Shown: positions 34,201 to 63,800 of the stretch, in pieces
Layout of the letters: each line of letters opens with the position of its first letter
How positions within the stretch are numbered: position 1 is the first letter of the stretch
From: Phoronis australis
Lineage: Eukaryota; Animalia; Phoronida
NCBI GenBank assembly: GCA_002633005.1
Contig: NMRA01000018.1
Span: 118,291 to 182,290 of the forward strand
DNA length: 64,000 nucleotides
Direction: 5' to 3'
The notes under the pieces: model-generated
The model's input: only the letters and a program-made list of their open reading frames with translations
Database searches by the model: none
What the model was told of the DNA's origin: nothing
Translations under genes and position numbers: made by a program

Positions 34201-37200
34201 GACTTCCACTTGATCCCGACTCAGATTTGGTGGACAGAAATTCAATTACTACATATTAGTTCATTAATGTATAAATTCCACTGTCAACCCCTCTCATGTT
34301 TTTTGATCACTTTAAGTTCACTAAATTTATTTTTGCTTTTTGACACTGACTGGGATCTATATTCTCATGTTCTATCAGCTGCAGCCACTGGCTTTGTCAC
34401 AAAATACTTCTTTGCAGTGGGAAATACATAGAACATGATGTCCTTGTTCATCCATTTTATTTTCAAAAGCTTTGCTGTTTTCGTAAGGCGTAAGTACATT
34501 CCACCGCAGAGCAGTGAACATTTGACAGTAATATAATAGCAGAGAAAGATGTTAAAACACTGTTTATACCAATAGGTTGAGTCCTGTCCGCATTACATAG
34601 GATCTGTTGACAGCACTGAATGCCCACCCGCCAAAGACATGATCACCATTTGGCGGATTAATGAATTTAAAAATGGCGTGGTTATTTCGAAAGTCAGCTA
34701 TTACTCCACCTTAAACAAATGAAGCAGAACTGACTAATCCCCTCATACCGTGAATAATACGCTTACAAGGAAGTCACACATTCCTAAAGATATGTGGGAA
34801 TTTTCGCCGCTCGTCTTTCTGAGCGGCTTTCACCAGGATCAAAGAGAGTGCGGCGCTGGAGTCAGATACAGATGTGATGACCACATTGTCTGGTGCGAGC
34901 AAGAACCAATTAAGAGTAATTACCCGACTATAAACTGAAGTAAACATCTCTGTCTGCACATACTGGCGAATTTTCAAAATGCATTAATCAATAATTTTCA
35001 TTAAAAATGAACACCATGTCAGTATTCAGCTGGAAAAAACAATCAAGTTTTTGATTTTTTAAAATCGATGAACTAATAATAAAAACTACAAGTATTGGGT
35101 ATGATTGATGATAAACGACCGTGCAAATCGATATAGTCGGTGGATTTACAAATGCTGATCAGAGTTAACAATATCACATGGATTATTCTTTTAATATTCT
35201 TTCAATCTCGTTTAACCAGATTTTTGACCAGGAAACAGTCGTATCTAACTTGTGCCAACTCTTCTTCATTTTTATGACTGATAAAAAGCTAGAATTGTTA
35301 TGCAGTTAGTACAACCAAAATTGTCCAGGGATTCCAAATCTTCAGTTTGGCTATCACCATTTGCACTTAAACATGTATATATTTTATGATTTGAGTTCTA
35401 ATAAAATTAAAGTTGAACTAATGACACATGTACTTTTGTTCGCTGTGAAATATTTACTAGTGTAGCTGTAAGCTGGAAAGTTCAGGGATGGGTTCACAAT
35501 TAACTAATTACTAATTAAGTTTCGCTGGCAGTCAAAATCTAACAGTGACTGTTTTTGACCCTTCAAGTTTAAATATTAAACAAAAAGATATCGACTCGTT
35601 CCCGATAAGAAAAAACAGGTAGACAGGGGTATTAAAATGAAATAACACAAACCATTATGCAACATATATAAAACCATCGTTCGTCATGGTCAAGATAAAC
35701 ACAAATTAACTTTTTTAGTCATTTTGTAGTACTTAAAATGTACCAAGTTGCAGGCAGTAACTTTGTGCAAATGCCAGAGAAAAACAATTTGGGTGTAATA
35801 ACAACCATATGATTGCTAAGAAAGTAGTGCTAGCTATTACCTTTCTACTTCATTAGCTCAGATCTCCATCAATACAAAGGGCGTGCTGAATAGGCATCGC
35901 GAAAGTTGTCTGATGCTAAGGGAATCTGAGCGATGACCAGTGTAAGCAAAAAAATTCTGCACATGTGTATTTAAGGGCATCAAGGAAACCGAGTGAGGTA
36001 CTGATCAAGTAATCCAAAAGTGAATGCGCCTTTGCGTGGTGACAGTGGCAAACGAATAATGAATAACACAAATGACATATAGTGACACTGTACACAAAGA
36101 CAGGCACTTAACTACAGTAGTAATCGAAATTCAATGGTATTGAGACACCAAAGATGAAACCTCAAGCAAGCTTAACATAATTCACTTACGACAGTTATAA
36201 CAGCCAGTGTTAATAACATCGTCATGACAACAGACGCCATGACTAATCTACACGCCAGACTCTTCCTCAAAGTATAAGACATTGTCATCAGAGAATCTGC
36301 CAGACCACTACCGCTGATGGACGAATGCTTTCTGCCACCCTGTAAATAAAATTACCCTAATTACTCGTATAACTATTCCATTCATAATACTAAATTTGAT
36401 GGTTTGTAGAAAATTTATTACACTTTGATAATGCTCGTAATGAGTACGAGACTAATGACCTTGCATGCTGCAGAGATGTAGCATAGGAATGTATTATGAG
36501 ATACGGAGCGAGCATTTGCCAGGAAACAGTATGACAACGTGTACCTAACAGTTATGAGTACCAGTTGAATGGAAAGGATGGTAACAGTCACTTACCGAGT
36601 CCACATTTTTAGAACCAGTTTTATCAAATGAATAACAGGCATCAAACTGGTTCTCAAAATCTAGGACCCCTGCATTTAGTGACAATTGCTGAAAGGTCAT
36701 AGAGCATCACATGAAGCCATCACAGTTCAAGCCATTGAATGAATGTTTATAAAGAAGTGTCTTCAAAACAAAGTTTTAAGCCTCCCCAGGACATACGAAA
36801 CAGGCCATAAATAATGATCACCTAAGGAAACATGAGCCACAATGAAATACTAAGGTAGTTGCCACCAGTCGAACTGGTTGAATGAAAAGATTTGGTATAC
36901 ATCAATGTAATTATTCACTATTAAAAGTGTAATTGTTGAAAATTCTTAATGAAAAAATACCCTAATTGCGACTCCATTTTACTTACTGTGCAGTAGTCAG
37001 AGAGTAAAACAACCAAAAGCAAAGAGAAGACCAAGGCGCCAATACCATATCCTACAAATAGTGCCAAGCTCCTGCAATAAAGAAGATGAAAATCTCCACT
37101 ACAAAGACGAAATGTGAAAAAAATAGAATAAAACAGACAATTGAATTGAAATGGGTTTGAAATGAAAAAAACACAAGTCTAAGCAAAGCCTTATGTTCGC

Positions 37201-40200
37201 TTAATCATAGATTAATTACATTTCCAACTGTGTGGCTAACGATATGATTGATGATCTAATTGGTATGACCTTTTTTATAATGAGCAAAGCAGGACTGGCA
37301 ACTGCTACGAATTTACTCGTTTTCTACATACACTTAGGGAGTAGAAAACCATTACCTGCGAGCTTTAAAATGTTACAGATTTAATTTGCGCATTTATTTC
37401 CGAGTTTTTAAAATCAGTTCAAAGTAAAACATATCGGCCATTTTGAAGCGTGGTTCACTTTTTCAACACTTACCTGGGAAGCATTAGAACTTGAACAACA
37501 AACATTGAAGCAAATATGACAGAGGCGCAGCTGATGTAATACTTGAATGAAGAGTCGCTCTGCTTTAGGTACCCTTGGTTCATAGATTTCTCGTAGAATG
37601 AGAGGAACACAGGATGAACGTCTTTAGAACGTAACCACCGCCTGTAAAACACAAACGACTGCACTTAGCACATGACAGACATTTTCAGTAATAGAAATAT
37701 TTTTACTTACCTTTGCCAACAATAGAAAGGTGACGCCAAAATGACCCAGCAAATGGCCAGCATCTTTTTGTGTTCATTCACTTCCCCTGAGGAAGATCGC
37801 ATATAATGAACGAAGTCAGTGTTTCATTAACTTGAATGCCCAGTATTGCACTTGACTACTAACACAGACTTCGTTCATTACATACGATCTGTCTCAATGG
37901 AAGTGAATGAACACAAAAAGATGCTATTCCTATTAATGCTACAAAAATCTATTTGAAGTAACCAGACATTTATCTCCAGTAGGGGTAACACCAAATACAT
38001 TTTCCCTCAAAATTCTCAGCGACAGCATCGTGTACTGACCTCGGATCAACTGAGCAAGACAGTGAAGTGAGATTCGCCTCCATCATGGCTAAACTCTGAA
38101 ACAATGAAAAGTAACTGAGTTATCAAATAATGTAACAAGTAATCATACAGACTGTCATTTTATCCACAAATGAATAATAAGAGAAAATTGAATTCAAAAC
38201 AAAACATCAAGAAACTATCATTTTGACTAGTCACTATTATTCGCAACTCTAAAATATGTGAATTAAATAATATATGTCACAGAGAATGAAAACAGTGACC
38301 ATAACATTTCAGCCGAGGTCAAAACGATTTTGCATTCCTACACAGTCGATTTACTTTATTCACCCTGTATTATTAATTAGTTGGCGCGCTTGAAAACTAT
38401 CCATTAATTGAATTCCAGTCTGGCAATGACTACTAATTTAATTAATGAAACCTAGTGGTATACGCTCATACTTAGGCCTATGTGCCGCCATTAAACATAA
38501 TGCGTGTTTTCAAAGTGTTTTCCATAAAAGCATGACTCATTAATGCACTACATCTCACAGTGGGAACACAGAGACATCTCAAATTAACACTCCTGCTCTT
38601 CCATTTTGTTAACAGCACGAGAATAAACATGTCCTGTATTCAAATATCCTACTCACTGTCTCTCCAATATTTTTGGCTAAGCTTGCGCCCAAAATATTAG
38701 CGAATGGTTTGGCAGCACCCCACGAGTCGAGGTACTTCGACACTCTCATGGAAGCGCGCAAACTATTTTCTATGTGGTGACCCCTCTGTCTTTTGCATAC
38801 GGCTTCATCATTCTGTACCTGTGGATTGAAATTGTTTAGTGCCCTGAAGGGAAGTATAGCCCCTGATGGTTATGTGACTACTAACTGGAACTGAATACGT
38901 AACTATAAGGTTTTACAAAGTGCCAAAATAACCCAAGGAAAAATTCGCACAATTCATAGCCCCGGCAGGCACAACCATACTTCTGTGGTTGTGAAAAAAC
39001 TTTAAGTTTGAAAACTAATGCGTTTTACTTGTAAAGTGCAAACTTTAGAAGAATTAACTTTTGACAAACTGTTCCTTGAAAAAATTGCTGATTCAAAATT
39101 GTTGTCAGTAAAAGGACAAGCTGATGTCACTATCAAAACCAGTTGAAGATGAAAATTCTACAGCTGAATTTTCAACTAGAAGATTACAAGAGAATGAGAA
39201 AAGAACAAGATCTATCAAAGCTTAAATTTGATCACAAACTTAAGCACCAAATTACAAGTGTCATCCCAGTCATTTATTTTAGGAGACTTCATGCCAGTTG
39301 TTAGTGTTGGTAATACCAGGTCACAGATCGCAGTGACCTCTCTCTCAACTGCGCTCATAGTGTGCAGTTAGTTGCTTAAATACAATAATGCTGTTTCGTT
39401 ATAATTTGGTGTTCGTTTGCTCACTGGCGCCAACACTAAGATACAAGAATGACAAGCTTGCTTACCGTGTCAACAATGAGAAATGTCTCGACACCCCTCT
39501 CTGCCAGAAAAGCGTCCCTCAGCTGTCCGTTACCTGGCTCTACCTTATACTCGTTATTCAGGTGTAACAGTGTTGACCTGGAGATGTGCACTCGCCTAAC
39601 AGAAAAGAATACAAGGCATTTTATGAGTACTGACTGTGAAACAAAAGTAAGACTAATATTGTGTCCATATCTCGGCGTACCTTGCAATGCAATGCACACA
39701 CTTGCAGAGATCTTGCTTTTCTGTGACAACAAAAAAAAAAACGGATAGAATTCACGGAATTAGAGTTCCAATGAAATTCACATGCTTCATTGGTAGATAT
39801 AATTCTAACATCTTTGGTTTTTAATTTCCAAAACGTAAGAAAAAACCGTCAAATACCATGATTTTGACACAAATCCGTCGATGACAGTTTTGCAGCAGAC
39901 ATGTTCAAGTATTTACTCATTCTTTCTGAAGGTGACGCTGTTCTTTTTCCGGTTTTGAGAAAAAGTAAACATGGCATGCAGCAAGTTATCGGTAAAACGG
40001 AGTTACGGCATACAAAAATTCAGAGGAAAAACTGAAGCAATTCCCATGGCATTTTATTTATCACTTTCAATTAGCAAAAATGGAAGTTGCTAATTTGCAA
40101 AATGGAAAAGTGGAATTTTATATTCATAACTATATTCTCTTTCTGAAAACAGAAAATCAGGGTCTCTACACTTTTTAGTGAAGCTTTGTAAGATTCACTT

Positions 40201-43200
40201 CCCTTCCATTTACTGTTTAAAGTAAGAAATTTTTCCATTAAGGACACATTATGAAAGAAGTAGAATTTTATTTAGCAAAAATGTCAAAAAATACGAAAAT
40301 TTCACCTGATATCACCCATGTAGTTTATACTGAAATGTCACCAAACAGTAATATTGCTAAAATTACGAGCATATGCAGTTAATTCAAAAAGGGTAATATT
40401 ATTAGTTAGTCCTAAGTTGAAGTCTTACCACCGCCATTTTGGTAGATGTGAATTCACATCACCATTCACAACATCACTCATGGAAATCCTCAGTCTTTTG
40501 ACCATTTGTCATTGCTCAGTGATAAAAAGTCACACGATTGATGATAAACTTTGCATGGAAAATTATATAAACCGTTAATATGTGCCATGTCGTTTTTCCA
40601 TGTCCATCTTGCAGAGTCTTCCTTATTTCATCCTACTTTAACGTCATAATAAATGACATTATTCTCAATTCTCATCTTGTTTTACTCTGCAACATAGCTC
40701 GTCGCATACCCCGGGCAAAATAAATTACGATAATATGAACTCTTATTCATTCATATCATATCATGCCATTCACAGAAATGGTTGATATGAATTCATTATA
40801 AAAATATTTTATGGTGAACCATCCAAAATTGCCTGCATAAACGTGAACTCAAGAACTGAACTAGCAGATTTCCGTGCTGTGTTAGTATAGGTCTCAATAT
40901 TCAGTAGTAAAGGAGAAAGAATTGAAATAAATTTTTAAGCGATGATTCATAAGACAGTGCTGTGAATGTTCGTCATGGTGATGGAAATCACGGTTAAATC
41001 TCACCAATTTCGAACAAAAAAAAAATTGTGCTGAATTTTCCCTCTTATCGTTTTTCAAAGGCTTATAACACTGTTGTGAATGTCCATATGTAAAATGTTA
41101 ACATGCTATGAACATTCCCACTAAATAAAATTGGTTCTAACCCCGGTGTTTAAGGTAAACGGCGGGGTATGGAAAATTGAACTAGACCGTATTTATCCAC
41201 CTTGGCTGAGACGCGCTCGGCTCATGCTCAAAGGGATGCCGCCAAGCTGCTCTATTCATCGAGTCACGAGCGAGGATAATTGACTTCGCTCATGCGGATA
41301 TGATCAGCTGATTACAGTCTAGCCTAACAACTGTNNNNNNNNNNNNNNNNNNNNNNNNNNNNNNNNNNNNNNNNNNNNNNNNNNNNNNNNNNNNNNNNNN
41401 NNNNNNNNNNNNNNNNNNNNNNNNNNNNNNNNNNNNNNNNNNNNNNNNNNNNNNNNNNNNNNNNNNNNNNNNNNNNNNNNNNNNNNNNNNNNNNNNNNNN
41501 NNNNNNNNNNNNNNNNNNNNNNNNNNNNNNNNNNNNNNNNNNNNNNNNNNNNNNNNNNNNNNNNNNNNNNNNNNNNNNNNNNNNNNNNNNNNNNNNNNNN
41601 NNNNNNNNNNNNNNNNNNNNNNNNNNNNNNNNNNNNNNNNNNNNNNNNNNNNNNNNNNNNNNNNNNNNNNNNNNNNNNNNNNNNNNNNNNNNNNNNNNNN
41701 NNNNNNNNNNNNNNNNNNNNNNNNNNNNNNNNNNNNNNNNNNNNNNNNNNNNNNNNNNNNNNNNNNNNNNNNNNNNNNNNNNNNNNNNNNNNNNNNNNNN
41801 NNNNNNNNNNNNNNNNNNNNNNNNNNNNNNNNNNNNNNNNNNNNNNNNNNNNNNNNNNNNNNNNNNNNNNNNNNNNNNNNNNNNNNNNNNNNNNNNNNNN
41901 NNNNNNNNNNNNNNNNNNNNNNNNNNNNNNNNNNNNNNNNNNNNNNNNNNNNNNNNNNNNNNNNNNNNNNNNNNNNNNNNNNNNNNNNNAGCTTTCCACC
42001 AAGGCTAGGTGATGCAAGACATTATTATTTGTTCTTTGTTGCATTATAGTAACTGGTCTTGGCTAATTATCATTTTATGGCCTGGTCATCCATTCAGCCC
42101 AAAGTAGTTCCAGAGGTGGCTTATCAGCCAATTATTCACGCATGCTGACTCACAATAGAAGCCTGATAAGAGTGCAGGTGGATAAATGCAGTGTTCCTAC
42201 AGTTTCTTGTTTTAGTGGATGTGTTCACGACATGAAAAATATTATCTAGTGGTAGCCGAGGCACAGAGCTTGAACATAGAAAGCATTCATTTGACTAATT
42301 TACCTTTCAAGAAAAAATGAGAAAAAGAAATCTGATTAGTCCGCCATACTGTGGGACTCAATTAGTGACATTTTACCACAAGTCCTGTCACAAAAAATTT
42401 CAAGACAGCCTTTAAGATAAAATAACCTTTTACTGTGATCTTGATTTCCAAGGATTTCCATGCATGTAACACAACAATCAGTTATGTAGTTTTAAGTCCC
42501 ATTCTTGAAATTTGAAAATAGAGAACTGAAATACAACTGCTTGAAGGCAGTATTCCATGCTTGTCGATGAAATGTCAGTCAATGTATCAACAGGTCTTAC
42601 CCAGGTACCCCGCCAGCCTCCATGTGATTGGCTATGGTGACGTCATCTGACCAGACATCATACTGCCATTTCCTCAGCCCCAGCACTCCACACAGCACAT
42701 TGCCAGTGTGGATGCCTATACGCATGTCAACATTACAACCAGTCGCCTCTCTCACCTCCCTGTAAACAATTGAGTGTTCTAAATCACCAGCGAAAATGGG
42801 CGCTAGCTTAAGAAAGAGAATAATCTGTATAACTTAACAACGAAAATAACATTCCGTTCCCATCCTTTCATGTTCCTCTTGAAACGTTTGAACAACCAGT
42901 TAAGCCTTGCAAACTGTTAACAGTTAATTATTTTAAATAACCTATTCTTATAAAAGGGACATAAGCACAAATGTATTTTCCGGCCTTGGAAGAGGGGTCC
43001 CCTATATAATACGGAGGGCCCCCACCTAAAGAGTCCCGTCGATCAGGGCCCTCATATTAATATTATAGAAGATGCACTATTACTGTGAGCAGTATAAAGA
43101 GTTTCCTTCTCATAACCAAGGAGTCCCCGCAGACAACACAAATGCCTTTAATGAAGTCACAAAAACTGATGACATTATCACTACAGTACTACTCATTGTC

Positions 43201-46200
43201 ACAAACAGCATCACCACATACTGATTACAAGTTCCTACCTGATAGCGTCAATCATCTTGAGCCCCATCTTGACACAGTTGAGTGCATGGCTGGGTCGTGA
43301 CACAGGCAGGCCCGAGACACAGTAGTAACAATCACCCAGGATCTTTATCCTCATACAGTCATTCTCCTGCCAAAGATACAATCACTTCATTGCCAGACAA
43401 GAATGAGATAAAGACTAAAAAGCGTATTGATTGATTTACATTTTTTCTTGAAAAATCAAGTCGGTGGTGTAGTATCTATTTTAGTTGCTTATTTTTTAAA
43501 AAGTAAATCGACCGAGACAAGCAGAAATGATGCATGATTTTTTTTACTCATTAACTCAGCAAGTCATGGCATTTCAAACCTTGCTTAACCTTGTTTACAT
43601 GCCTTCGGGCAAAACCGGTGGAATTGTTACGGGCACACCAGTTTACTTGCATTTACCAAATGTTTTTCATGCAGTTTACATGACGTACCCAGAACATCTG
43701 AAATGTTAAAACAAGGACTGGATACTTAACTAAGTGAGAAAAAGCCTACTAGGATCTTTCCTCGCAACTGATTAATAATCGGTTGCTTTTCATGACAGCA
43801 TACTCCTACCTTCGAAAATTCTAATTTTGTGGCAACAGGAAATGAGATAGCAGATAATTGCAAAAAATGAGCACTGGAATTGGTTTTCGACTACAATTCA
43901 CCTGAAATCAGCTACTAAAATCTCACCAATTACGGACAAAAGTAAGCGGCATAGTGAGTCCAAAATTAACTGGAGAGTTTTTACAATTATAAATGATGCC
44001 TGAATGCTCTAATTTTTAAAAACATCGAGAAGAGGGCACAAGCTTCGTAAAACATATATCTTTGCCTTTTGACACTTACCTGTCCTATCTTATCGAATGT
44101 GCCAAAAAGTTCATTTAACATCTTGACAAGTTCACCAGCTGTACATTCTGAAGCTAGTGGAGTGAAGTTGACTATATCAGCGTACAGAATACTGAAATAA
44201 CACAGTCCAGATGAGAACAAAATTAAACAACTCTGACTTATTGCAAAATCATGAGGTCAAGAGGCAGATAGTCATGTGGATAAATAAATTAATAATAAAA
44301 TAATTGCAGGCTGCTCTGGTGAGCCCATTGAACTGATCACCTGGAACTATTTTTATGCTCTACTAATATATAGTTACAACCTAGCTGAGGAGCTAGAGAC
44401 TTGATTGAAGGGTCTAGCAGTGTGCCCCAGTGGGACTTGAATCCACGTCCTTGAATAAAGGAAATGGACACTTATCCCTCTAGGCCACACTTGCCCCCTC
44501 TAAAAATAGTAACTTTGCCAATGCGTGAGCAAAAAAAAGCCCATTCACAACAAAAAATACTTCAAATAGCACATTAACATTAAATTTCCAAAACAACCAT
44601 GATCAACCGAAAATAAATCCTGAAAAAATTTTGGATGTAAATTGATCAAAAATGTTGAAGTACTGTGCATTGCCATATGGCTCGGAGACTGGTTGAAGAT
44701 ATAGTACTTGAATGAATAAAATTCACAAATGATAAGAGCAAATTGTGAATATTTCAAGTTGACACAAATGAATTCCACATCAAAATGTTTCATTTTAGTT
44801 AACTTTTCCATTGAAAAAGGTTAATTGATGATTTATTGTCATGTAGGGGACAACTTTACCTCATTTTTCTGAAAACAATTATCAATTTAACTTTTTTCTA
44901 CACAAAAGTAGCACACCTAACTCATTATACACACACTTTTCTCTTTTCTCCATGTCACCCGGAAGACTAGGGGAAATCTTTTAAGGACACATCTCCTTAA
45001 TCACAATAAAAAATTACGAACCGAGTCACTCAACTGCATAAAATATTCTCAAACCCTTCCATACCAAGACAGTAAAGGGAATTGGCTGGTAAAAAGGGCG
45101 TCCATTTTGACATGGTTGGCTAACCCTTCCAAACAGGGCCATTTCACGTCACTCGATGGTGATCTGACTTCCTGTTTACCATAGAAGCAAACTGCTATTA
45201 AGACACGGAAAAATTTAAGCCTGTTCTATGAGTTTCATAAAATGTGCTGATTAAGATAAGGAAATGACCCTTCCACAAAACATTAACCAGTTCCTTTGAT
45301 AAACAACCTTTACAAGCTATGCTTACCTAAATTAAACCATTTCAAAAGACATACCATGATATAATGTTCCAATTAGAGAACACTCAGAAGACACATTTTA
45401 GTCAAAAGGTCTGTTTTTGATCAAATAGCTTTTCCACCTGCAAATGCCCCCACTAGATTTTTTAAACTTTGAGTCATGATGCTTGAAATGATAAATGTTT
45501 TCATAGGACAATAACTGGACCAAGAACACAAACTCGCTCTAACAGAGGTTTGTACCGACAAGGTTTTGGTATTGCCAACGCTTGCAACCTAAACACTGGC
45601 GACAGTACAACTGGAAGTTCACAAGATTTTAAATCACCATGGCACATCTTGGCACCTCAGAAAAACCATAAGGTTATGTAAGAACCTAGAAAAATGCCCA
45701 AATTTGTCTGAACTAAGGAACTGGTTACTAGCTTTGAAACATCATACCTCAGAAATGGCCGATCAGATTCACACAAAACTTTCCGATACTATGCTTAATG
45801 CTCTGTTCTCCTGTTAAGAATTTTTTTAATTGACCCACTTTTGCATGAAGAGCTATTAAAATTTCTTTTAATGAGTTGCATAAAACAAACAAAACAATAA
45901 CTTGAGAAAACCGTACCAGCGTTTTAAAAGAACTTTGGTGAATCAGACGTTTATTGATTACATTGCTTTGCTAATGAACAGTACTGTTACACCTTTCCGT
46001 TTTGCTAAGTTTTAGTAGAATGACATGGTCATGTGACCCAATCAATGGCAGATAGATATAAAGTAAAAATCTTTTCTTGAAGTAAATTCTATGACTTGTC
46101 AATAAGGTCCTACATACAACCTAACAATAAACAGTGAAAGCAAGCAATGTCATTCTGCATCCCTCCCACCTCTTGTTAACAAGCCCCGTGTACCTGACGT

Positions 46201-49200
46201 TGCTATGGCTTTTTACATAAAGCTCATGAAAGCGTGTGGTAGATGTATGGCGGCGAACTTGCAGGAAGTCATGGCTGGATTGTTTGATTTTACGCATCAT
46301 CTGATTCTTCATCTCAAACGCCAGGTGTACCGGGAGAACGCTAAGCAACAGCTCTTCCTGGAAGTTAGTAAAGACACTAAGCAAAAATGGCCACCAGGTG
46401 GCAGATTAACACTTGTTAAAGCAGAACAAGGCACTTGGGCAGCAGTGGACAATATGAATAAAGGTCTGGCAGACTTGTGGTAAAAGTTCTTCAATTTGGG
46501 ATAAAAGCAAATCCTAAAATTGATGGCCGGATGTCCATTCCTAGATAGGCATACTGCACTGCTACAAACAACCAGAAGTTAACCAAACGTAGCTCGACAA
46601 CAGCTATGTAGTAAAGCCCCTGTTAACATTTTGCGGGGAAAATGTGACATAATTAAATATTCCGCTTATCCACTGGTGCACCATATGGTGTCGCAAACTG
46701 AAAAATGTTTACCATAATGCCAGCAGTTTATGTGTCATAGTCCACTATGAATGGGATCCTCTGGCAAACGGATAACATGGTTGAAAATGTCTGCCCAGAG
46801 AATTTGACCAAATTTCCTTCAGAGTTGTACTTCAATGATGTGGTTTTAAAGTTGATGTGCGGTGATATCTCCATGTCAAAAACCAGCAAACAAAATTTTG
46901 ACTGAAGTTTCAGCTAACCAAGATTTAGTAGCCCATGCCTAGTTTCTTTCTAGTTTGTTGCCATGACTTTGAAAAACCGGACAAACTTCTGCACCATTTA
47001 TCAAGTTAACTTGAATTAGCTCCATAACTGTTACATATCTGTTGTCAGTGGACAATAAACTGTAACCCTTGATGTGAGTACTGCACTGCCAATCAGCAAT
47101 GTTTCCCCTCCATCACTCACCAATTCATGTGGGATGTATAATAATTACAGCTATCACCTGGCTATACAAATGGGTAATGCATTTTCTAATGGAGTCATCA
47201 TCAGGGGACAAACTAGGCAATTCACCAGTAAGTTAAATTCTTCCTCCTCTCACTAGAGACCACCAGAAGTCATGAGTGACTGGTCACCACTATAGTGCAT
47301 CATGGGGCTACGTCATCATGTGTCATCTGGGGACACCCATTATGAGCAAAGCATCTTCTTGTTGATGTCTCAAACAGATAGCCTACAAGTGGGGAAGCTT
47401 TACACCTGTTAAATTAAACAACTGGCAGGGCTTGATGCATCTCAACCCCACATTGCTTAGTCAAGGGTTAATTGGGCATTGTGTTAATTCTTTGTCTATT
47501 TAGCACAAAATATGGTGAAATTCTACTTTGTCAACAAAAACAAAGAATTTTTTTAGTCTAACACCAGCATGGTTTTGCACTGTGTTGATGTCCTAAAACA
47601 ACTGTTATTTGCAATCGGCAAAGTAACCAGTCTTTGAAAACTGGGAAAATGATAATTTTGGCAATTATTTTTGTGCAGAAGAATTACAACTCTGCCTGGG
47701 TGCAAACTTCTTGAAAAACACTAAAAATATACACTACCACCAATAAGAGAATTCAAATTTGTTTTGAGCATAAATTCATAAATTTAATCAGTGTTAATGA
47801 ATAGCAAAGATCGGTTCACTACAATGACTTTTGCTGCTGAGAAGTTCTTACACACTACCAGTTAACATGGCAAAAATTCCTCTAATACTTGGATCGTTTA
47901 AAATCAGTTCAATTAGTATTTTAACTATGTTTGAAACATAAAGAAATGGTTGTCTGGATTCTCTGGAACCTTGGTGTGAAACATAAAAATGCAACATTTA
48001 TGTCAGCTTGGTCACTTTACAATTCAAGCAATTGAAAGTTTTCCTCTCATTAGGAAAAAGGCCGTTCAGTGGTATCTTGTAGATGGACAATGCTTCTCTA
48101 CATGAAATGGGAAAACCGCTAAAGCCGTCCGCCCTTGATGTAACGAAAGTTGATCTAAGCTCCATTGTTGCACAGGGCAATTACTGCATTCACGGCAATA
48201 AAATACTGGCTGAAATAAATTGAAATGTCAAGGACAGAAATTGGTAATTTTTTAAAGTGTTTAGCTTCTGAAATTGAATTCCTCGTGAAAAGTTAGTGTA
48301 GAATCTTTCTTTCGCAGAAGAAATATGAAAAAAATTGGCCAAAATGCTGCAATGGATTTTTATTCGTTGACAACAGTTTTGAGTCAATACATGTATATGT
48401 TACTGTATTCATTCAGCCTGGGAGATAATTGGCATTTGTGTAGTAACATCAAATAAAAGACAGAACCTGGCGATTAACAAAAAAAAGATTGACATCCGGC
48501 CTCTGAAAACTGGTTTTATCTGGAATACGGACCAAACGTGAGTTAGTTGTAATGTTTCAATAGGAACCAACACTCTGGGGGTGATCGGTGGCAGTTATTC
48601 TCATAAGTCTGACTACTTGGCCCTTATCAGAGATTTACACTGGTTGGCAATGTTAAACATTCCCTGGCTTGAATTAAGTCAATGAATGTTTCCGCAGAAA
48701 GGGCGTATTCATTAGGATGGCCTCACTAATGACATTAACACTCAGGTTACATGAACCTAGCGGCAATAACACTGTAAACACAATTAGTAAATGTTGTGGA
48801 CCATCTGAAACAAGAGCAAAGCGGAGCCGTTCGTATGTATCCATGAGTGCATCACATACAGCGCAAATGCAAGTGATGATCACTTCAAACATGCCCACTA
48901 AACAGAGCAGCGCTAGAAAACTGAATAATAGTCTCTAGGAGATTCAAAGCAAGTCAGAAATGCTCTCCACAATAGTAACACACTTGTCACCTTTCATTAT
49001 GATTCACGATTCCTCAAAAAGTTTGAAAGATTGGGAGACAGATAACAAAGGTCAAAAACATGGAAAAGCCAAAGGGGGGCGGGGGCAACATTGTTAAAAT
49101 GAAGGAACTAGTTAGACATCAAGGCAAATGCAATGAAAAACAAAAATTACCACCAGGCAGCTCTGCAGTAGTCAGATTTGTCCCAAAATCCACGTCAATT

Positions 49201-52200
49201 GTACTCTTCCCAAATTAGAAGTAACATACAAATTTCATGAAGATCCCTCAAGGAACCTGTATTGAGCCACAGGAGAAAAAATGAAATTGTCATAAAAAGA
49301 AACCACAGCAGAACCTGTTAAAATATCATCATCAGCCACGCACTCATTAGGAACACATTTGCCAATTTTCATAATGATCCTTAGTATGATTTGGCCAATA
49401 GAGAGGCAGACGCCAAAAGCCAGACTAAAAAAATGGCCACTGGATGGCACAGAGCAGGTCAAATCCATACAAATATAATTAGGTGCCATATTTCTTGAAA
49501 ACTGTCAAGGAACTTCGAAGATATGGAGGAAAATGTCACACAATAAAATTACCAATAGGGGACACAATGGTAATTGGATTCATCCGAAAGTCGGCATCAC
49601 CCATTGTCACGTTCCTAGAAATACACCAGTCAAATATAACACAGATCTCGCAAGAGGTTTAGGATACAGGCACGGGCGAGAAAAAACACCGGCCACTAAG
49701 GGGTTCCACAGTAATTGAAGCCATCCAGATAATGAGACGGATGCCAAAAAAAAAATAGAAAACAATAAATACTGCCACTATGTTAAATCGCGTACAGTAC
49801 GTTGAATTGTAAAACAACACAAGACATCACCGTGGTGCTTTTAACAGAAACTCGGGCTTCTAATAAGCAAATTCAAATCAAGATTTTAAACTAAGACAAA
49901 AAGGTGGTTAATATTGATGATATTACAGCAGTTCAGACATAAAAATTAGCAATTTTACTTTGATCAACTTACCGTACTCAACCTTCCAAAAGAAAAGTTA
50001 AGTTTTAAGTACAAAAATATGCAAATAAAACGTTTTTCACAAGTCCTCTTCAAGAAATGCCACTTACGGATTTTAAGACTGCCTTATCTATAACCAATTT
50101 CAGTTTACACCAAGCAATTTACTAGAAATACAAAGTACACTATAATCTACAACTTGAGCTATCACAAAAATAAATTAATGAGATGGCTATTAAAATAAAG
50201 CCACCTGTTTTTAACTGCATGTTAACCAATTTCTGATTTGGTATAATGTTTGAAAACTGTAAATTGCAACAGTCAGGGTAGCTGTGTTACAAATGTATTC
50301 ATTACGCAAAATAAACACAATTTATTTGATGAAACAGTTCAAGCGATTTGCACTTTGAACCCTTAAGCAGCAAGTCGAAACTGAAGTAAGTCTCCACAAC
50401 AAAAACAGATACTCAAGACAACAACAATGTTAGCACCAAACAACACCTGTGACAAATCTGGCCTAAATATGACCAATATTAACTCCCAAGCAAAATAGCA
50501 ATCAAGCAGTAAACACAACATGTTTTGCCTCCACACTATATAACCCGAGCAGGTCATACACACTTGTGGGCACACGTCAGACACTAATCACTGTTTTTGA
50601 CAACTTCATGACTTTTTAACGTTGCACAGACAGTGCATATCCAGTCTGAGTCAGCTCACAGTGACGTCATACCCACTTGCACCCTATTAACCCAAGCGAC
50701 AGTGACACATGTCAGGCCAACAAAACAGGTAGCAAAGGTGACCCCCTCCACCACAACGTATGACCTCTAACAAACCTGACGGGATGACACTGGCGAACAT
50801 ACAAATCCCGGAACAGACACACCTTGGGGGCCTTGGTCATCATTTTTAGTTTTAAGTCCCCCACAATTTCTTTTACTAAATTTCTTGGTATGCAACTTTG
50901 CAAAATGTGCTCCTAAAACAAACAATAAGGCAACCAAGTATTGAGGTGGTCCAACATCCACTCATACAAAACAATCAAAAGTTAAGAAACATGAGCAACG
51001 CGGAGCGTTGAAATGTGCCCACGAATGCACCGCTAACGTTGTGCTTCTAGGGGTGTTTATTTGGAACATAAAAATTTGCAACCAGATGGCACAAAATATG
51101 TCGAATCCATCTGAAAACTTGTATGTGTCATCAAAGTTATTTACCAAATTTCATAAAAATCTGTCAAGGAACTTCTGAGAAAAAAGAGAGGAAAAAGAAA
51201 AAATTAAATAGCCGCTAAGAGGCTATAAGCGCAAAAAACATAACTGCCACAAAGAGGCAACAAAGTAGATAAAGTCGTAGGAAAATCATCGTCAGACGTC
51301 CTCTTCCCATTAGGAACATAAACACCAATTTCCACAACCATCCTTAGAGTGGTTTGGTTGACAGAAAGGCATACGTCAAATCACAAGACTCAAAAACAGT
51401 AAAAATGGCCACAAGATGGCGCAAAATGCCTCGAATTTTACCGAAAACTGGATGATAGCGTCACCCAACTGCCAAATTTTATGAAAATCCATTGACGATC
51501 CTTTAAGATACAGATGTAAACGTAAAAAACTAAAATTGCCACTAGGGGATAAACCGGTAGCCCGATCCGTCCGAAAGTCGTCATCCTCTGTAGTCAACTT
51601 CATATAAATACACCAGCAAAATTCAATAAATATCCTGTGGAGCATTTAGGAGATACAGCCATGGGCACAAAAACAAACAAAACTGCCACTAGGAGGCGCC
51701 ATAGTATTTCAAGTCATCGGAAAATCATCGTTAGCCGCCCTCTTCACAGTAAGAACATATATGCCAACTTTCAAAATCATACCTAGAGCGGTTTGGTTGA
51801 CAGAGCGGTGGACGCCAAAAACAGACTCGAAAACAGTAAAAATGGCCACTAGGTCGCGCAAAGTACCCCGAATCTGTCTGAAAATGGGAGGATGGCATCA
51901 TCCCACTAATAGATGTCTAACTGCCAAATTTTATGAAAATCTGTTGAGGACTTCCAAATCTACAGAGGTAAGCGTAAAAAATTAAAATTGTCACTAGGGG
52001 GCACACTGGTAGACGGAGAGGTCCGAAATTCGTTGTCATCTGTTGTCACCTTCATGGGAACACATCTGCCAAATCTCATCAAGATCCTGTGAAGGGTTTA
52101 GGAGATACAGCTGTGGACGTCAGACACCGGACGATGGACGCCCGGACAGACAGAGATGATGGCAATATGCGACCACATATAAATATGTGGGCGCATAAAA

Positions 52201-55200
52201 ATATGGTGTTTACAAAAAATCCTGTCTTAACTACAATCTTCTCTCTCGAAGTCACACAAGATGATAACAGTCAAATGTTATATAACTGTATCTTTCTTTA
52301 TGGTCAAGACTACAACTTGAATACTTGAATGTTATACCTGGGTGCACTCAACTACATTTTTGATCGAGAGTGCAGCAGGAAAATTTGAATACTCACCTGT
52401 CTAGAGAGTGGAGAAGGAGCCCATTTATTGGGTCTTTATGTGAAAAGTCATCCTTTCATGGGTTTTTGTAATAGAAATGTCACCCTCCTGTAGGGGCTTA
52501 CCCCGCATTTTCATAAACCCGAACCCTTCATAGGGATTCCTGGACAACTGAGTTTCAAACCATTTAACATGAAACAATACACGAGGTGATGCCACGTCAA
52601 AAATCATTGCATCCACTTTTGAAATAATACTCATTCTGAAAACCCTTCTGATGTTACTGGAAAAAAGAACATTTTTTAAGAGTTTCAAACAACTGAAGTG
52701 AACCTTTTGTAGGGAATTAAACTGAAATGGCACCTTTCTGAAGAGAAGTTTTGTTTGTCAAAAAAGACACCTTTGTATGGTCAATGGATGTGAAAGTCAC
52801 CCTTCTGGACGGCACATCACAACTACCTCTACTGAAAGAGCTACCCCTCCAGAGATACTATTTAGTGTTTGCCAAGAATTCTCAGCTGGTGTTTTTGGGA
52901 CTTTAACACAAGACAAATCAGAATGCTAGGTAAACACTTTGCCTCACTGGGTGAAAAATTAGAACAGCCAGACAATTTTTCACGATGCTTTAGAAGTCCT
53001 AGGAAAGAAATATTTTGTCACACCCTCCACACCTCGGACACATTCTGAGCAAAGGTTAAACTAAAAGGGAAATTGAAAACTTCAAAAGTATAGGCCAATG
53101 CTTGGGATTCAAATGTTTGAGGGCTTTTCTGTAAATAACGAGAGGATTCACGTCTTGATAAAACAGTACAATATCTAAACTAACCCAAACAGATGTCACA
53201 TTCAGTTGAAATGGATACATGCAGTGAACAAGTAACAATGATTTTTTGTGGATCACCACCAATACTTTTTACTGTCAATGTCATAGGACTGTGATTGATA
53301 GCTAATTTAAAGGACACTTAAATCTGACTGTTCCATGTACAGACTATTATTCCTGCTTTAACAACACCAATATTGTCTTGTCTCCATTCAGGCAACTCAA
53401 CCATGTACTTCTACAACTACTTAATCCTATGAATAACACTTGCTTCTTTTAAATACGATATTAAACAGTTTAATGAAGTATGCCCAGAAATCCGTGTCGG
53501 TACCGCTGTATTCAGGCTAAAAAGAGCTGTAACAACATGGCTGTGTAGCTTTTCAGAATTCTAATACTTTACGCAAATCCTTTTTAATGCTCAATAACGT
53601 ACAGAATACATTTGAAAAACGAAAAATTAAACAGTAAAACATGAAATAATACGTGTTATCAGCAAGAATCACTAGTCTTCTAACACGCCACATGTCGGTG
53701 ACTTCACTTGACCCATAGTTAAGTTGGAAAGACTTCTGTCCCAACGATCAAGATCTTTTCAGACCTAGCTATAGGTCACGTGATGTGACAGACATGTGCT
53801 GTGTAAAAGTATAATTCTTCCTAGTGTACCGTATCGCATGAAGCAATAAAATTGATAGAAAATTGAGAAATTGTGTGATTTGCCAAAAGTTTGGAAGTTC
53901 CATTTTATAAAAAACTGTCCTGTATATGATGATTTGCCAAATAAGTTCATTCCTGGATTCAAAAACGGCTCATATTATACATTCATACGACTAATGCAAG
54001 ACATCTCAAAAATGCTCAACTTGTCTAAATACCTACAGCACGCCTGGCGAACCAGAAAAATATACTGAGTATAGATGATGAACTAAAAAATATATTTCAG
54101 TTATGCTTTGTTCTTTTATATATATTGACATTATTGTATGATGGGCCGGAGGCCTTCAAGTTCAATAAAGTTTAATAAAGTTCAATAAAGTTTCAAGTTC
54201 AATAAAGTTTATTCTTCTCTTCTCATAACAGCACATGAACTAATTTTCAAAAGAATATTTGAGTTACTTGGTGTTGACAGGTTCAAAGCCACTAGTATTC
54301 CCCCAAACTCAACAACCAAAAAGGCAGTCTGGGCAAATTTAATTAAACAAGACGCATGAATTGCCCCTTCACTGTGTAAACTTTGATATCCTAGTCCTTG
54401 TACACCCAAATTAAATGTGCTTCTAGACAAAATAAAAAGACAACACAAATATAAACACCTCGAGAGTGTGCAAAAGCCCAACTTAAAGGGACACATTCAG
54501 TTCTAGGGATTATTGCTGGAAGGTACAGTTGTTATTAGCTTTGACCAACCAGTACCATAACACAACAAAATCCTGCGTTTTGTGACTTTATTACAAATCG
54601 TCAGTTTTGCTGTTGACTGCCAGTCCTTCGCTGCAATTGAAGCCGGTGACTATATCAGCTAAATACGCTTAAAATACTCTGCTACTAACGGTGTGGGGTT
54701 TATCTCCACTAGCAAACCTTTGGACTGCTACTGGTAAAGTCGTGAGTACAAAGCTGCCGCGGGGCGAATCTCAATAAGACACTTTTCTCCTCAAATGTGT
54801 CACTTTAAGTTTTATGCCAACTGCTTAATTAAAACCAATTAAATGATTGATGGTAAGCTGTACTATTCAACAAGACAATGGCCAGACAGGTTTCCATTTC
54901 AGTTCTTGCCACTCAAGGGAAATGTAATACCTGACAAACCCGTCAATGAAACTAAAGACAAAATGAAAAAGTACAAAAATCGAGGCCATGGTATTTACCC
55001 CCAGCCGTATGAAAAGCAGCTAAATAATACTTGTGTCTGCTCTTTGTAAGCTGCCAGTTTGAGCAAATGGCAAAAACCTGACAAGCATCATCAAAGGGTA
55101 GGAAACGATAGAATGTGCATTTGCTGAAAAATCAATTTCTTCAGGAATGGAGACTATGGCATTAGTAAAGAACATTTCTGTAGAGTTAAATAGAGTAACG

Positions 55201-58200
55201 AAATTTGCAAGCCAGAAGGTTAGGCATAATTAAATGTCACTTTAAGTTTTGAAGGGCTTACAAAGTTCAAATTGTGGATAATTATCTACGGTTACTGAAT
55301 CTGGGCAAACCTTAAATAAACCCCAAAATAGGTAAGCGAAAACGCATAAAATTATAACATTTTTTCAAATTAAGAAATTGTAGTCTGTCGATTGCAGAGT
55401 CTTGAGAGGGATTTGTTTAAATAAAATCCTACATGTTACTACAGTCAAGTTAGCATCCACGACACTAATGAAGTTCATAGTAACTAAGAACATCACTACA
55501 TTATGTAATGAACAAATTCATTGCAAAAACATTTTAAAGCGTTTTTGTGACGATTCTCCATAAAAATTTCAACGACATAAATCAATACAGTTGCTTTACA
55601 TGATTTATCAACCAATGACAAAAAAACAAAAATTATACACAAATTTCAACGAACTATAATTTTTTCATACCTGCTGTTCTCGCTCATGCTCCAACTTGAT
55701 ACGCGACTCGATGCAGTTCCGTGTGTCTAAGAACGTCCGCCTGTGGGCGATATCTGTCAAATACTTGTGGTAGGCACCCACCAAGTTAGCGCACAAATAG
55801 ATGATGCCATTTGCAGCAAGCTACAACCAGAGACACACAAGTTTTAAGAAAGGTATAATAATAACAATAACAATAATATTAATCATGATAATAATAAGAT
55901 GAAAAACAGAATAGCAATAATGTTAATAATAATAGCTGGAATAAACACAATACTAATACAGTAAAAACTCTTCAGACTGGGACAATGAAAAATAATTTGA
56001 TTTGTTCCAGGTTGGAGCTTGTACCGAATTTCAGAAGTCAATACTAGACGTGTCAAATCCAACAATTAGAATTAATGACAAACAATCATTCAACTCAATG
56101 TCACACACTACGGAAACACATGAAAATGTTGCATTGGCGACTATTTTCAACAGTTTCATGAACTGCCACACCTATTTTCAGACTCTTTTGATACCAAAAG
56201 GCAGCATTCGATAATTTTCAAATAAAATGAATGCCAATGTTGCTTGTGTCCCAATATCATTCACGATTAAGAAATTCAATTACTGCTTAAATTTCAAGGT
56301 CCCAACCCAAATTTTAGTGCCAAACTAGAGAACTTTTAATGTATACTTTGTTTACAAAGGATACATCAAAAACACAAATAATGTCACCCAAAGGTGCATC
56401 GCATAGATTTCTTGAGTTTAGAAAAAGTTAAGACATATAAATTAATTCAAATGAAGCAAGTAAAATGAGTGTATAAAATTAAAATTTTAAAAACACTGTC
56501 TATAATTAACAAAAATTTCTGAAATCCATTTATGATAATTACCAATTTTGTATTCAAAGATTTATAGTTATCTTGGTTAATAAAGCCTTCATAGCTTTTA
56601 TTTGGATAAAAATGTCATTTAGCCAATGTAACTTTTTAGTAAAAAAGATATGAAAATAAAAAAGTTGCAATACAAGTTGTCTGATAACCATGATAATCCA
56701 AAACCAGTTTTCAAAATGAAGCCCATCTCTAACCGGCTCAATTCAACCAACTTTGTAACTAACTACACAATACGTTGTAAAATGATGGACATTTTGCACT
56801 TTTCAAAGCAGATTTAAGTACAAATCAATCTCTATTTCACACACACTGTATATACTGGGATGGATCGTTTATACATTAAAGTTTACAGATTCAGCCTGTG
56901 TCCACGCCATGTGAAATGGAGATTGTAATCCAAGTGAAAAGATGACCTTTAGCAGCTGGTTAAGTCTAATTAAAAGTCTTGATTTCACACTTTACCACAT
57001 GCTGTTGGAAGCAGAGTTGTAGTATTAATTACTAAGATGCTGGAACCCCTACGCACAATCACGGTTATACAGACAAGTCATTCAAAAATAGCAGACATTT
57101 TGGGCAAATACACCTCACAATGGCATACAATACACAATCTCCAATAGCTAGCTTACTGCATCCAACAACATACAGCGCAGTCACATAATGTTGCATTTAC
57201 ACGGCACTAAAGGACAATGAACAACTGACACAGAACTACAAAATGATCATGGAGCGCAAGTATGTGTTTAACGGAACAAAATGACACCACAGTGACAAGT
57301 TTTGTCACCCGTTTCTGAGCTAGGGTAAATTGAACCAGATCATTTTGTTACATATCAACTTTAGATCAAACCACAAACCAGTGGCAATGCGAAAGGGGTA
57401 ATTTTAATTGAACTTGTATAATCGCATACATGTGAGTGATTATTCTTGACAAATATTCACAATCTGTCACTCGTTTTTGTGATATGGTAAATTGCGAAAG
57501 TTACTTCGTCTGCTGTTTTCATGTCGTGACGCTATAAATGCACACAACAGTTGAAATTCTACATGGTTTTAGGCATTCGCCATTGTTGACACGAGCGTGT
57601 ACAGATTGGCTTCCCGTTACTGACTTCCCTGCTGATCCAGATTCTGACAGTGTCATATGTAGCACTGATCAACTCATGCCACGACAACTTCTATGCCAAG
57701 CATTAGTTGTATAAAAGCCACTTTAGTTAACTTTAACTGCCCTAACCAAAATATTTAAGGTTACCAGTCACTCTTAGAAAAATGTCCAAATTTAAACTTC
57801 CTTTCGAATGTCATATCTCAGAAATGGCTGACCTGATGCATACCAAACTTTCACATACTACGCTCGATACACTGTTCTGCAAAACCTTGAATGGAATTGT
57901 TTATAAAATTTCCACTTTTGCACACGGCGCTATCAAAATAAGAGAATTTAAGTGATTTTTATGAAAAAACTCAAAAAGTTGCATAAAACGAAACAATATT
58001 TTAGGAAACCATTCAGCTTTTTTTAAATTCTTCTCGATAATTCAAGTAAGTGTACATTGGGTCGTGTTCATGAAACCAGAGTTTTGCTATGAATGCACCT
58101 GCCTTCTTTAATTGCTATGAATGCACCTGCCTTCTTTAATTGCTAAATTTTAGTGAAATGACATCACATTACCCAGTTAATGACAGAATTGTGAAAAGTA

Positions 58201-60896: not shown

Positions 60897-63800
60897 CTGC
60901 AAACATAAGTAAATCAGAATGATTACACAGTCAATGAGCACATAACAGGGAGGCTCAGATATCACCACCAACTGTTCTAGCTAAGTGACTTACAGGGGTC
61001 CCACATTTTGAGAATCATTTTTCTCCATTTTGAGAATCATTTTTCTCCATTGAATAACTTGAATCAAACCACCTCTCAAGATGCGGGAACGCTGTGACTC
61101 TTTCCTATTCTACCACAAGGTCTCCGCTGTGGATGAAAAATGGCTCATTTTATGCAGATGAGATTACCCAGTAAGATTAGTGTTATATGTACCAATAATG
61201 ACAAATGACCAAACCAACAGTTACATGGCAAAGGCTTTGCCAAGGCTCTGAAATACAACAAACTATAAATGAGGATGAGACAGGTGTTAGCTATTGGCAT
61301 CTCCACTGTGAGGTCTCAATATTGTACGGTAAAAACAGTGGTACTCAGGTGAGGATGGGACTAGTGTTGGATATTGGCACCACCAACATTTCCAGTGCAC
61401 AGTCTCAATTGCGACCACAGCGGTCCTACAGGATGAGAGGGGTGTTGGCTAATGGTACCATCAACGAATCCGCAAGGTATCAATTGTGACTTTTAAAAAA
61501 CATGGTTTTATGGAGTTGAGGAATGAACTGTTACTATAGCTATCGGTACTACTAACTATTACATGACAGTCCCTGAAGGCACTAAAACAGTGGTTGTATA
61601 AAGGTGAGAACGAGATAGAAGCAACTCTTGGCACCTTCAGTAGCTTCACGGCAAGGTTTCTGAGTTGCGGCTCTAAGAAAAAACACGGACACTATAAAAA
61701 CGAGGACAAAATGTTGATATCTGTTAAGCTTGAGAGACTGGTGCCGATTATTGTGAGACTGATTTTTTATTTTGATGTGAGTTTTTCATTTTGTTGGCTA
61801 CTCATGTGAGATCATGTTGCTATCCCCTACCGAAGCGCGACATTTGTTTTTCGACCACGAAAGCCATCATGTTTTTGGACTAGTTCATAGCAGGTGTGAC
61901 TGCTCAGACACCGACATAACAAGCATTACCGATCGAAATGTTGGTAGTCGTTAGACCTTTATGAACTGGTCCCGCCTCTTTAAATAACCACTTGGCCATT
62001 CATGTTGAGGACACTACTAGAATCAGACGAAATTTTTGACTGGCGATGTTTTTCATATCAGGGGACAACTGGGGACCATCTGATGCGAAGTTTTGCATTA
62101 GGTTGTGCAGCCTGTGGTTGGATCTCAGTGACATTTCCGTTATTGGTTGTTTAGTCATGTTTTATGGTATGAAAAAATAGTTATTTGACAGTCATTTTTA
62201 TGACATCAAAAGCATACACTAACAGCAAGGCCTCCCCGTCCCCCCCCCCCCCCCCCCCNTTCACAGTACATTTTTCCAGTAACATTTTGTGATAAAACCT
62301 GATTTTGCAACATGTGGCCAATCCAACAGCAGAAAGAGGACTTGACAGCAGAAAGAGGCTTGAGTAGCACAGAGTGTCACAGTGCATATTTGTATGTAGA
62401 GGAATGCATATTAAGTACGCAGGAAAATGTGTATGTTTTACACGTGAACACAACTGTAAAAGTACGCTGTTAGTGAGGAGTTACTCCAGTTCAGCGAGAG
62501 TGGTGACCAAAGAAACCGTGACCTTGACAGCCAATTTGGAAGCCACATTCCACCTTCAAACCACTATTTTCAAGACCATAGGAAGATAATGATTATTTCA
62601 TTATGGAGGCATAAATAATTTGACAACTGTGCCTGTGATTCACCACAGTTATGAGTCTGGCAACTTCCCTCTGATGGCCATTTACAAATTGTTTTTAAAA
62701 AGACAAATAATAGCCTGGCCATGCCATCTTAACTGCAGTCTATAATACGAGTAACAGATCCTTTCAATGGTGAAAATATCATTAAGCGTTATACAGTTGG
62801 CAACTTCCGATTTCTGAAGTCTAATTTGAAACTTGCTTTCTGTTGTATTAAATGATGAATTACTAAGCCGACAAGATCAGACAATATAGTACGAGTTTGT
62901 CGAGACAATTTTACACCATGAATGATAGATTTATTCAGTAATCATGCACGTTATATGAAATTGGGAATATCAGACAAATTGCAGGGCAGAACTTCCTGCC
63001 CATTATTTTGATATAATTCAAAAACGGTTCGTCGGACAGACTTCAATCGTGCGCAAATTAATGCGAAACGATTTGTGATAGAAGTGTCCAACATTCAGTT
63101 TACCGTTCCATCAAAACTGGACAAGCAATCATTAGGTTCAAAATAATTATCATTAACCAGATTACTCTCACACAATCTGCACAGTTTGAATGTGACAACT
63201 CTCCCTCGAGATGACAATTATACACCCAACTTAACAGGCCAGAATGGGTAATTAAACGCATAGGAAAGACAAAATTAACAAATGCCCACGGGATCACTCC
63301 ACTGAGATTGATTCCCAGTATAGAACAAGAGAGAAGAAATTGTTATTTTTCTGTAATTACCGTCCTTGTCGTATTAAAAGAGCATTCACAACACATACTA
63401 CAATGCTATGTTCAGGCACATTGAGATTATCTAAACAAGCATTGACCTATGTGACATGACCAATGAGCGATAACCTCAGGTCATGCAGGAGATCTAAACG
63501 CTCCCTAGAACCACATATGGAGTAAGAAGAGAAAAGATACATCCACTCTGAAATACACCCACCCTATCCTACACCAAAACTTCCTTCTTTGAAACACTCT
63601 TGGGTTGCCAACTAATTAAAATCATCACTTGATACGAAATGACCAGTCTCGGCTCGCAATGGCAACTGAAGTTAATACAGCCGCACTAAACAATTCATTG
63701 GGTTACAGAGTCTAGAACATAAACATTCTTAACCATAAAAAACAAAACACCTGAATTAGTTTTTCAAACATTTATTTCGTCAAACAACTCATTAATTGCT

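Follow-up and report, generated by a model that had tools for sequence, protein, structure and literature searches.

Homologous mutually exclusive exons, also described as tandem duplicated exon substitutions, form a standard device, as several surveys set out (Martinez-Gomez 2021, PMC8373072; Martinez-Gomez 2022, PMC9741552; Hatje 2017, PMC5740500; PMC5602346), and one of these describes a protostome-wide mutually exclusive pair in Ca-alpha1T that was lost in one lineage (PMC9741552). Here, we describe such a pair, exons A and B, in an AC2-type adenylyl cyclase gene that lies in a 64,000-nucleotide (nt) stretch of Phoronis australis DNA (contig NMRA01000018.1, positions 118,291 to 182,290, assembly GCA_002633005.1; hereafter the window, to which all positions refer). 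Exons A and B resemble the tandem duplicated exon substitutions described in PMC8373072, PMC9741552, and PMC5740500 in their homology, their shared phase, their very likely use one at a time, and their likely age, and differ from known tandem exon pairs in that the derived copy appears to be the sole annotated form in gastropods and bivalves.

We find that this is a real, old, and expressed exon pair, and we consider it probable that it acts as a splice switch of ancient origin, in which the exons are mutually exclusive, and that the enzyme accordingly has two forms, predicted to differ in their regulation by G-beta-gamma. In the open-access literature, with most subscription journals outside its coverage, we found no report of an adenylyl cyclase with duplicated exons or with exons that are mutually exclusive. 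The one supplement of PMC8373072 has no ADCY or GUCY entry, and the control genes GNAO1, ACTN1, and ACSL6 were found in it; the 10 supplements of PMC5740500, for which no control genes were run, returned no ADCY, and the main text of PMC9741552 has none.

The reading frame stays open with exon A or exon B alone, and not with both or neither

Exons A and B (Table 1) are preceded by TAG and CAG acceptors, both end in GTCAG/gt, and both are of length 3n+2; the coordinates, phases, and translations given for them in an initial annotation of this locus were all reproduced on recheck. The introns across this region are 4758, 4418 (between A and B), and 2002 nt long. A global BLOSUM62 alignment of the two exons scores 29, with 12 of 45 residues identical, and none of 5000 shuffles reached this score (mean -24.6, standard deviation 8.8), which bears out the homology proposed in that annotation. 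The likeness is distant, since a local tblastn search with exon A did not recover exon B. Pfam returns no match for exon A and a sub-cutoff match for exon B. In silico, joining the upstream exon to the downstream exon through either A or B alone gives an open frame; inclusion of both leads to a stop at codon 111 and omission of both to a stop at codon 54, as expected from the original proposal that only one of them can be used at once. Exons A and B are thus homologous tandem exons that keep the frame only one at a time.

No third copy was found: 136 candidate exons were scored in the region bounded by the flanking exons, the best 25 of which all overlap A or B, and profile scans over the 2157 open stretches return only A and B. 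The introns around the two exons have no detectable DNA likeness between one exon's flanks and the other's, which argues that the likeness of exon A does not stem from recent copying. Word-based homologue searches with A or B alone gave no matches; these searches are weak and also missed relatives that were found later. Elsewhere in the gene, at 29567-29509 on the minus strand, there is a short, recent, partial copy of the end of the preceding exon (the end of the C2-side coiled-coil helix), 88% identical in DNA over 59 nt. This copy is intronic, carries a stop, and is a dead local duplicate, in contrast to exon A.

Table 1. Positions of the exon pair and associated features in the window
Feature	Position	Strand	Description
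Exon A, mollusc-type (SCIP)	50776..50912	-	137 nt, 45 codons + AG, open, phase 0-2, non-consensus donor GTTTGT
Exon B, Lingula/arthropod/AC5-type (SVLP)	46194..46357	-	164 nt, 54 codons + AG, open, phase 0-2, non-consensus donor GTACAC
TACTAAC heptamer	46364..46370	-	In the pyrimidine tract of exon B, -13 to -7; noticed post hoc
Upstream constitutive exon	55671..55820	-	Covers the end of transmembrane helix 6 (TM6) and the larger part of coiled-coil helix H6; phase 0 donor, AG/GT sites
Downstream constitutive exon	44080..44191	-	Start of catalytic C1a (YADIV strand); acceptor phase 2
Next two C1a exons	43366-43239 and 42759-42601	-	tblastn 89% and 93% to Lingula; RNA joints; splice sites
AC2-type adenylyl cyclase gene	25100..60900	-	Approximate span by homology, from collinear tblastn matches to eight AC2-like proteins; first exons unmapped

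Exon A groups with molluscs and exon B with Lingula and arthropods

To avoid selecting for either type, AC2 proteins of gastropods and bivalves were considered first if they had been picked via another exon; of the 22 that cover the segment (14 species), all 22 are A-type; one further fragment, from Biomphalaria, does not cover it. The initial annotation had named conservation of exon A in relatives as a check on its proposal, and the match to these 22 mollusc segments speaks for it. When 168 proteins were classed, 37 were A-type, 116 were B-type, and 15 were neither. Organism names are available for 28 of the 37 A-type proteins, all of them from gastropods or bivalves (19 species), with the other nine having no name; among the 168, a B-type segment occurs in none of the named molluscs, and an A-type segment in none of the named proteins from outside the molluscs. 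For example, the AC2-like proteins of Haliotis (XP_048254952.1), Aplysia (NP_001191655.1), and Mya (WAR11788.1) contain an A-type segment like exon A, 43-45 residues long and with SCIP and F-DLYV motifs. Unlike the gene in the window, all the listed gastropod and bivalve isoforms, including three from H. rufescens and two from H. asinina, are A-type, with no B-type isoform. The snail Candidula unifasciata has two AC2-like records (P0003 and P0142), both with an A-type segment. In contrast to the gene in the window, Lingula anatina (XP_013380296.1) and arthropod Ac76E have only B-type segments on record, in each case from protein records. The Lingula protein has the closest backbone to our gene (68% over 729 columns) and a B-type segment of the same length as exon B, 54 residues (score 163).

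Profile searches separated the two exons in the same way. With a profile built from 14 mollusc segments only, exon A ranked first of the 2157 open stretches (57.4 bits, E 1.5e-16) and exon B scored 32.6 bits; with a profile built from 10 non-mollusc segments, exon B scored 77.9 bits and exon A 11.0 bits. Exon A has kept its exact length of 45 residues and shares all 12 invariant columns with seven mollusc segments, and it departs from them where molluscs agree, at the second and third residues and at a final Asn/Asp that is replaced by Pro. It had been described as highly divergent and Cys/Lys-rich. The first description applies against exon B and does not apply against molluscs, as exon A is 39-53% identical to the seven mollusc segments; the second is weak for Lys, with five in A versus four in B, and is rejected as a conserved trait, with only one of the three Cys of A conserved in relatives. 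Neither the mollusc-type character of exon A nor the age of the pair was noted in the initial annotation. When 1.84 billion representatives were searched with a profile, 19 matched at E<=0.001. Fourteen new matches were looked up, six of which have an organism name, all molluscs; four weak or repetitive matches (P0148-P0151) class as neither type. Single-exon open reading frames have the same exon edges as the exon in the window.

An AC2-like metagenome locus (L033:2890-6190) has the same exon phases and a 57-residue B-type exon, with no A-type exon in either intron. In several other animals (for example at L016, L025, and L040), additional introns interrupt the B-type segment, so that an exchange of one single exon, as here, would be precluded in those animals.

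Phylogenetic analysis was carried out on the gene with and without the swapped segment. In a backbone tree of 25 sequences, from which the alternative segment was removed, the gene in the window groups with Lingula (Shimodaira-Hasegawa-like approximate likelihood ratio test, 94), outside a 14-row mollusc clade (100). In an exon tree of 31 rows and 45 columns, exon A falls inside the mollusc group (100/99) and exon B falls with Lingula, and the approximately unbiased (AU) test rejects A and B as one clade (p=0.00016). Since exon A matches gastropods and bivalves, whereas Lingula and arthropods have the segment like exon B, and since the gene apart from this segment pairs with Lingula, the duplication is likely, with good confidence, to be older than the split of this animal's lineage from gastropods and bivalves; one exon at odds with the tree of its own gene is what an old tandem duplication followed by loss of one copy predicts. 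Judged from their protein sequences, gastropods and bivalves appear to have kept only exon A, and the loss of exon B in molluscs rests on protein annotation. The animal of the window, we infer, retained both exons, with B as the major form.

Both exons are represented in RNA

We examined about 18-19% of the reads in each of three raw-read runs (X1-X3) with the same species label, and the splice joints considered are 15 of the 41 detected. Exon B is joined to position 44191 in 3, 3, and 4 reads over the three runs, a total of 10. Over the exon A region (50580-50999), there are 15 reads, all on the strand of the gene, seven of which are only partly aligned (clipped). Of these, three begin exactly at the donor at 50776, and four stop at the acceptor plus two shared AG bases. 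Read depth at the donor of exon A rises from zero exactly at that position (one read in X1, two in X2) and at the acceptor falls at the acceptor plus two bases (two reads in X1, two in X3), a shift expected where an upstream exon ending in CAG meets an exon whose intron ends in TAG; the bin means on A of 1.86 and 3.86 correspond to 13 of 14 bases covered. The bin past the donor is empty in X1 and X2, the runs with donor-clipped reads, which agrees with the downstream exon as the partner (first base T) rather than with exon B (first base G, which would match the intron). Reads at the junctions of exon A were the other check attached to the initial annotation, and reads stop exactly at both of its splice sites. 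At the shared 3′ end, there are three A reads versus 10 B reads, counts that come from read alignments with different settings. Exon A looks like a minor but real form, and exon B is likely the major form. A contig run (X4) contained nothing on exon A.

A repeat at 50990-52300, which starts ~80 nt upstream of the exon A acceptor, belongs to an interspersed family with another copy at 4850-6050, ~74% identical and in opposite orientation. RNA reads that originate at other loci cover this family heavily.

Exon choice probably depends on weak, competing exons

A steric lock between A and B is ruled out by the 4418 nt intron that separates them. We also looked for docking-type RNA pairing in flanks of 190-370 nt, and none of the 14 pairings between flanks of different exons clearly beat eight shuffles; the pairing of the upstream and downstream flanks of A was alone in beating shuffles, and modestly (-29.6 versus a best null of -26.1). 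The donors of both exons carry a base at +3 or +4 that is absent from the 11 other donors listed. Exclusivity most likely arises from two weak, competing exons together with nonsense-mediated decay of the frameshifted products that include both or neither. The TACTAAC heptamer before exon B, the single copy in the 11.7 kb between the flanking exons and one of four in 36 kb of sense strand, is too close to the AG for a usual branch point; we take it to be a candidate STAR/QKI or SF1 site, and possibly a STAR/QKI-type silencer.

The swapped segment includes the predicted equivalent of a G-beta contact in AC5

The alternative segment aligns without early gaps to residues 429-468 of human AC5, with its placement fixed by the flanking exons. 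Sequence searches of the PDB were not significant (AC5, E 0.31 for exon B and 0.14 for the A profile) and were used only for residue mapping. In AlphaFold models of relatives, from Haliotis (A-type, mean predicted local distance difference test score [pLDDT] 73.7) and Lingula (B-type, mean pLDDT 71.8), the long H6 helix ends a few residues into the segment and is followed by a second helix, a low-confidence loop, and the first C1a strand. The second helix has 16 residues in the Haliotis model versus 21 in the Lingula model, and the best structural matches of the Haliotis model are AC5, AC8, and AC9. The swapped piece thus comprises the last turns of the coiled-coil helix H6, then another helix, a loop, and the initial half of C1a strand 1; both the AC5 alignment and the models agree with the earlier statement that the segment ends the helical domain. 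The metal-binding Asp of C1a presumably lies in the next (downstream) exon. Because the swap covers helix ends, a loop, and half a strand, with this Asp placed in the next exon, both forms are predicted to be catalytically intact.

According to work on the human AC5-G-beta-gamma complex (PDB 8SL3; PMC10187219), G-beta Trp99 contacts AC5 Leu433 and Leu436, and mutations in the AC5 coiled coil increase activity and blunt stimulation by G-beta-gamma. The equivalents of these two residues are positions 5 and 8 of the alternative exon, which are Leu and Leu in exon B and Gln and Ile in exon A. Among the motifs counted, the three distinct ones of B type all have Leu at position 5; the A-type motifs of relatives, 15 of them distinct, have Val, Asn, Thr, Ile, Ala, or Met there, and never Leu. 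AC5 belongs to another group of cyclases (AC5/6), and we infer that these features carry over to AC2-type regulation. The initial annotation had proposed that the two cyclases differ in basal activity or G-protein coupling, and the residue equivalent to AC5 Leu433 is now a candidate for such an effect. We lean towards a measurable regulatory difference between the A and B forms. That this difference lies specifically in G-beta-gamma control is a tentative suggestion by analogy with AC5: the A form may be less or differently responsive, because the Leu with which AC5 contacts G-beta Trp99 is missing from it and both its helix and its loop are shorter.

The gene and its setting

The gene that contains exons A and B is, by its sequence, a membrane adenylyl cyclase of the AC2/4/7 group (ADCY2/4/7, Ac76E). 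Pfam identifies AC_N, two Guanylate_cyc domains, and a sub-cutoff Adcy_cons_dom, in a TM-C1-TM-C2 layout, and the top homologues with an organism name, among the best 120, are almost all annotated as type 2 or Ac76E. Of the eight proteins aligned to the window by tblastn, the Lingula anatina AC2-like protein scores highest (summed bits 1388 versus 1018-1203). The upstream constitutive exon matches Pfam AC_N positions 336-385 (E 1e-7) and is 84% identical to Lingula AC2-like and 58-74% identical to five mollusc proteins; the downstream constitutive exon matches Guanylate_cyc 10-45 (E 4.2e-8) and has RNA joints at both ends. A PFAHL-like C1b motif, of a kind named in PMC10187219, is present as [10 protein letters not shown] and is common to the A and B forms. 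An assembly gap at 41335-41989 lies downstream of the exon pair region.

Other features of the window include recent duplicated and inverted segments, 90-97% identical, at 57753-59891, in the intron upstream of the exon starting at 55820. A C2H2 zinc-finger gene (Pfam zf-C2H2) is represented by its 3′ part at 2784-3551 (plus strand) and about 900-1800. On the minus strand, exons for the glycine cleavage H-protein (GCV_H) are located at 9384-9539 and 17092-17259; the two are about 56% identical, and what is likely a mitochondrial leader exon lies between them, at about 12700-12810. Either GCSH-like genes occur here as a tandem pair, or this is a further case of exon duplication.

Discussion

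The course of events that would best account for these findings begins with a tandem exon duplication before the split from gastropods and bivalves, in which A would then have been kept and B lost or silenced. The animal of the window would have retained both exons and would splice them singly, with a B form that has the Leu contact and an A form that lacks it, and hence a changed response to G-beta-gamma. That both exons are used, one at a time, is in our judgment very likely. Several observations weigh against this account as a whole. No A-type exon was found in any of the 80 metagenome loci examined, and none holds both exons; no cephalopod, chiton, annelid, nemertean, or phoronid protein is named in our homologue sample, the best 120 of 3151. 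The exon tree rests on 45 columns. Among the 15 RNA joints shown, none involves exon A, the upstream exon, an A-B join, or a skip of both, and eight of the 15 reads on exon A are unspliced, so that the splice evidence for A is thin, at seven reads from probably four fragments, with its partner exons deduced indirectly. On the structural side, the Lingula model has a pLDDT of about 55 at the helix end, the second contact (Leu436) changes only from Leu to Ile in A, and, in PMC10187219, the contact with G-beta was seen in human AC5, where resolution is low, and other sites are proposed for AC2.

The low identity of A to B, and its having been missed by local tblastn and Pfam, are what would be seen if A were a duplicate of B that arose recently and is decaying, or a stretch that is open by chance; we regard this as extremely improbable, as it is refuted by the rejection of an A+B clade in the AU test and by the rank of exon A with the mollusc-only profile, and spliced reads also stand against it. 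It is conceivable, and quite unlikely, that the pair is ancient and that A is a fading relic in this animal, once functional and at present spliced in at a low level without serving a separate role. The long end branch of exon A (0.9), which may indicate relaxed selection on it, its changes at positions on which molluscs agree, its few reads, and the lack of an A exon in L033 would all fit such a relic. They have to be set against an intact frame, length, and pair of splice sites, the 12 invariant columns shared with molluscs, and flanking introns that give no sign of recent copying, while the truly dead duplicate in the same gene already has a stop at 88% DNA identity. The age of the duplication would also be read differently if the gene came from an early-branching mollusc and the duplication were specific to molluscs, or if gene conversion had brought A in from a paralogue since lost. 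The A-type proteins with a name are all from molluscs, slow-evolving sequences may group by shared ancestral states, and placement of the gene inside or with molluscs is only weakly rejected on the backbone (AU p=0.032). We consider this unlikely, given the grouping of the backbone with Lingula outside a fully supported mollusc clade, and given that the sole mollusc-like exon is tandem and phase-matched, as exon duplication predicts.

The alternative to which we give most room, as possible and less than probable, accepts the pair and holds that both forms are regulated alike, so that the swap tunes folding, stability, partner binding, or localization, or is neutral, with the link to G-beta-gamma being a coincidence. 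The predicted fold order is the same in the A-type and B-type models, the PFAHL-like motif is in both forms, and the length difference falls mostly in a low-confidence loop. Such equivalence sits poorly with the Leu at the AC5 Leu433 equivalent in every B-type motif counted and in 0 of 15 distinct A-type motifs, and with the effect of AC5 coiled-coil changes on both activity and the G-beta-gamma response, as described in PMC10187219. Our preferred reading therefore remains a splice switch between two differently regulated forms. Its furthest extension is doubtful: that a switch more than 500 million years old toggles the coiled-coil G-beta-gamma contact, turning AC2 coincidence detection on or off, and that gastropods and bivalves fixed the "off" exon and the animal of the window keeps both. 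If this were true, molluscan AC2, that of Aplysia included, would be a frozen splice isoform with rewired G-protein control.

The exon pair is a natural swap experiment, in which one otherwise identical protein occurs with two versions of the part presumed to relay signals to the catalytic core, both from the membrane bundle and from G-beta-gamma. It explains why mollusc AC2 differs at an otherwise near-invariant segment, and it makes a clean candidate case of one exon replacing another by way of a stage at which the two were mutually exclusive. Should the predicted difference in regulation be true, conclusions on AC2 drawn from flies or mammals would not transfer to Aplysia and other molluscs.

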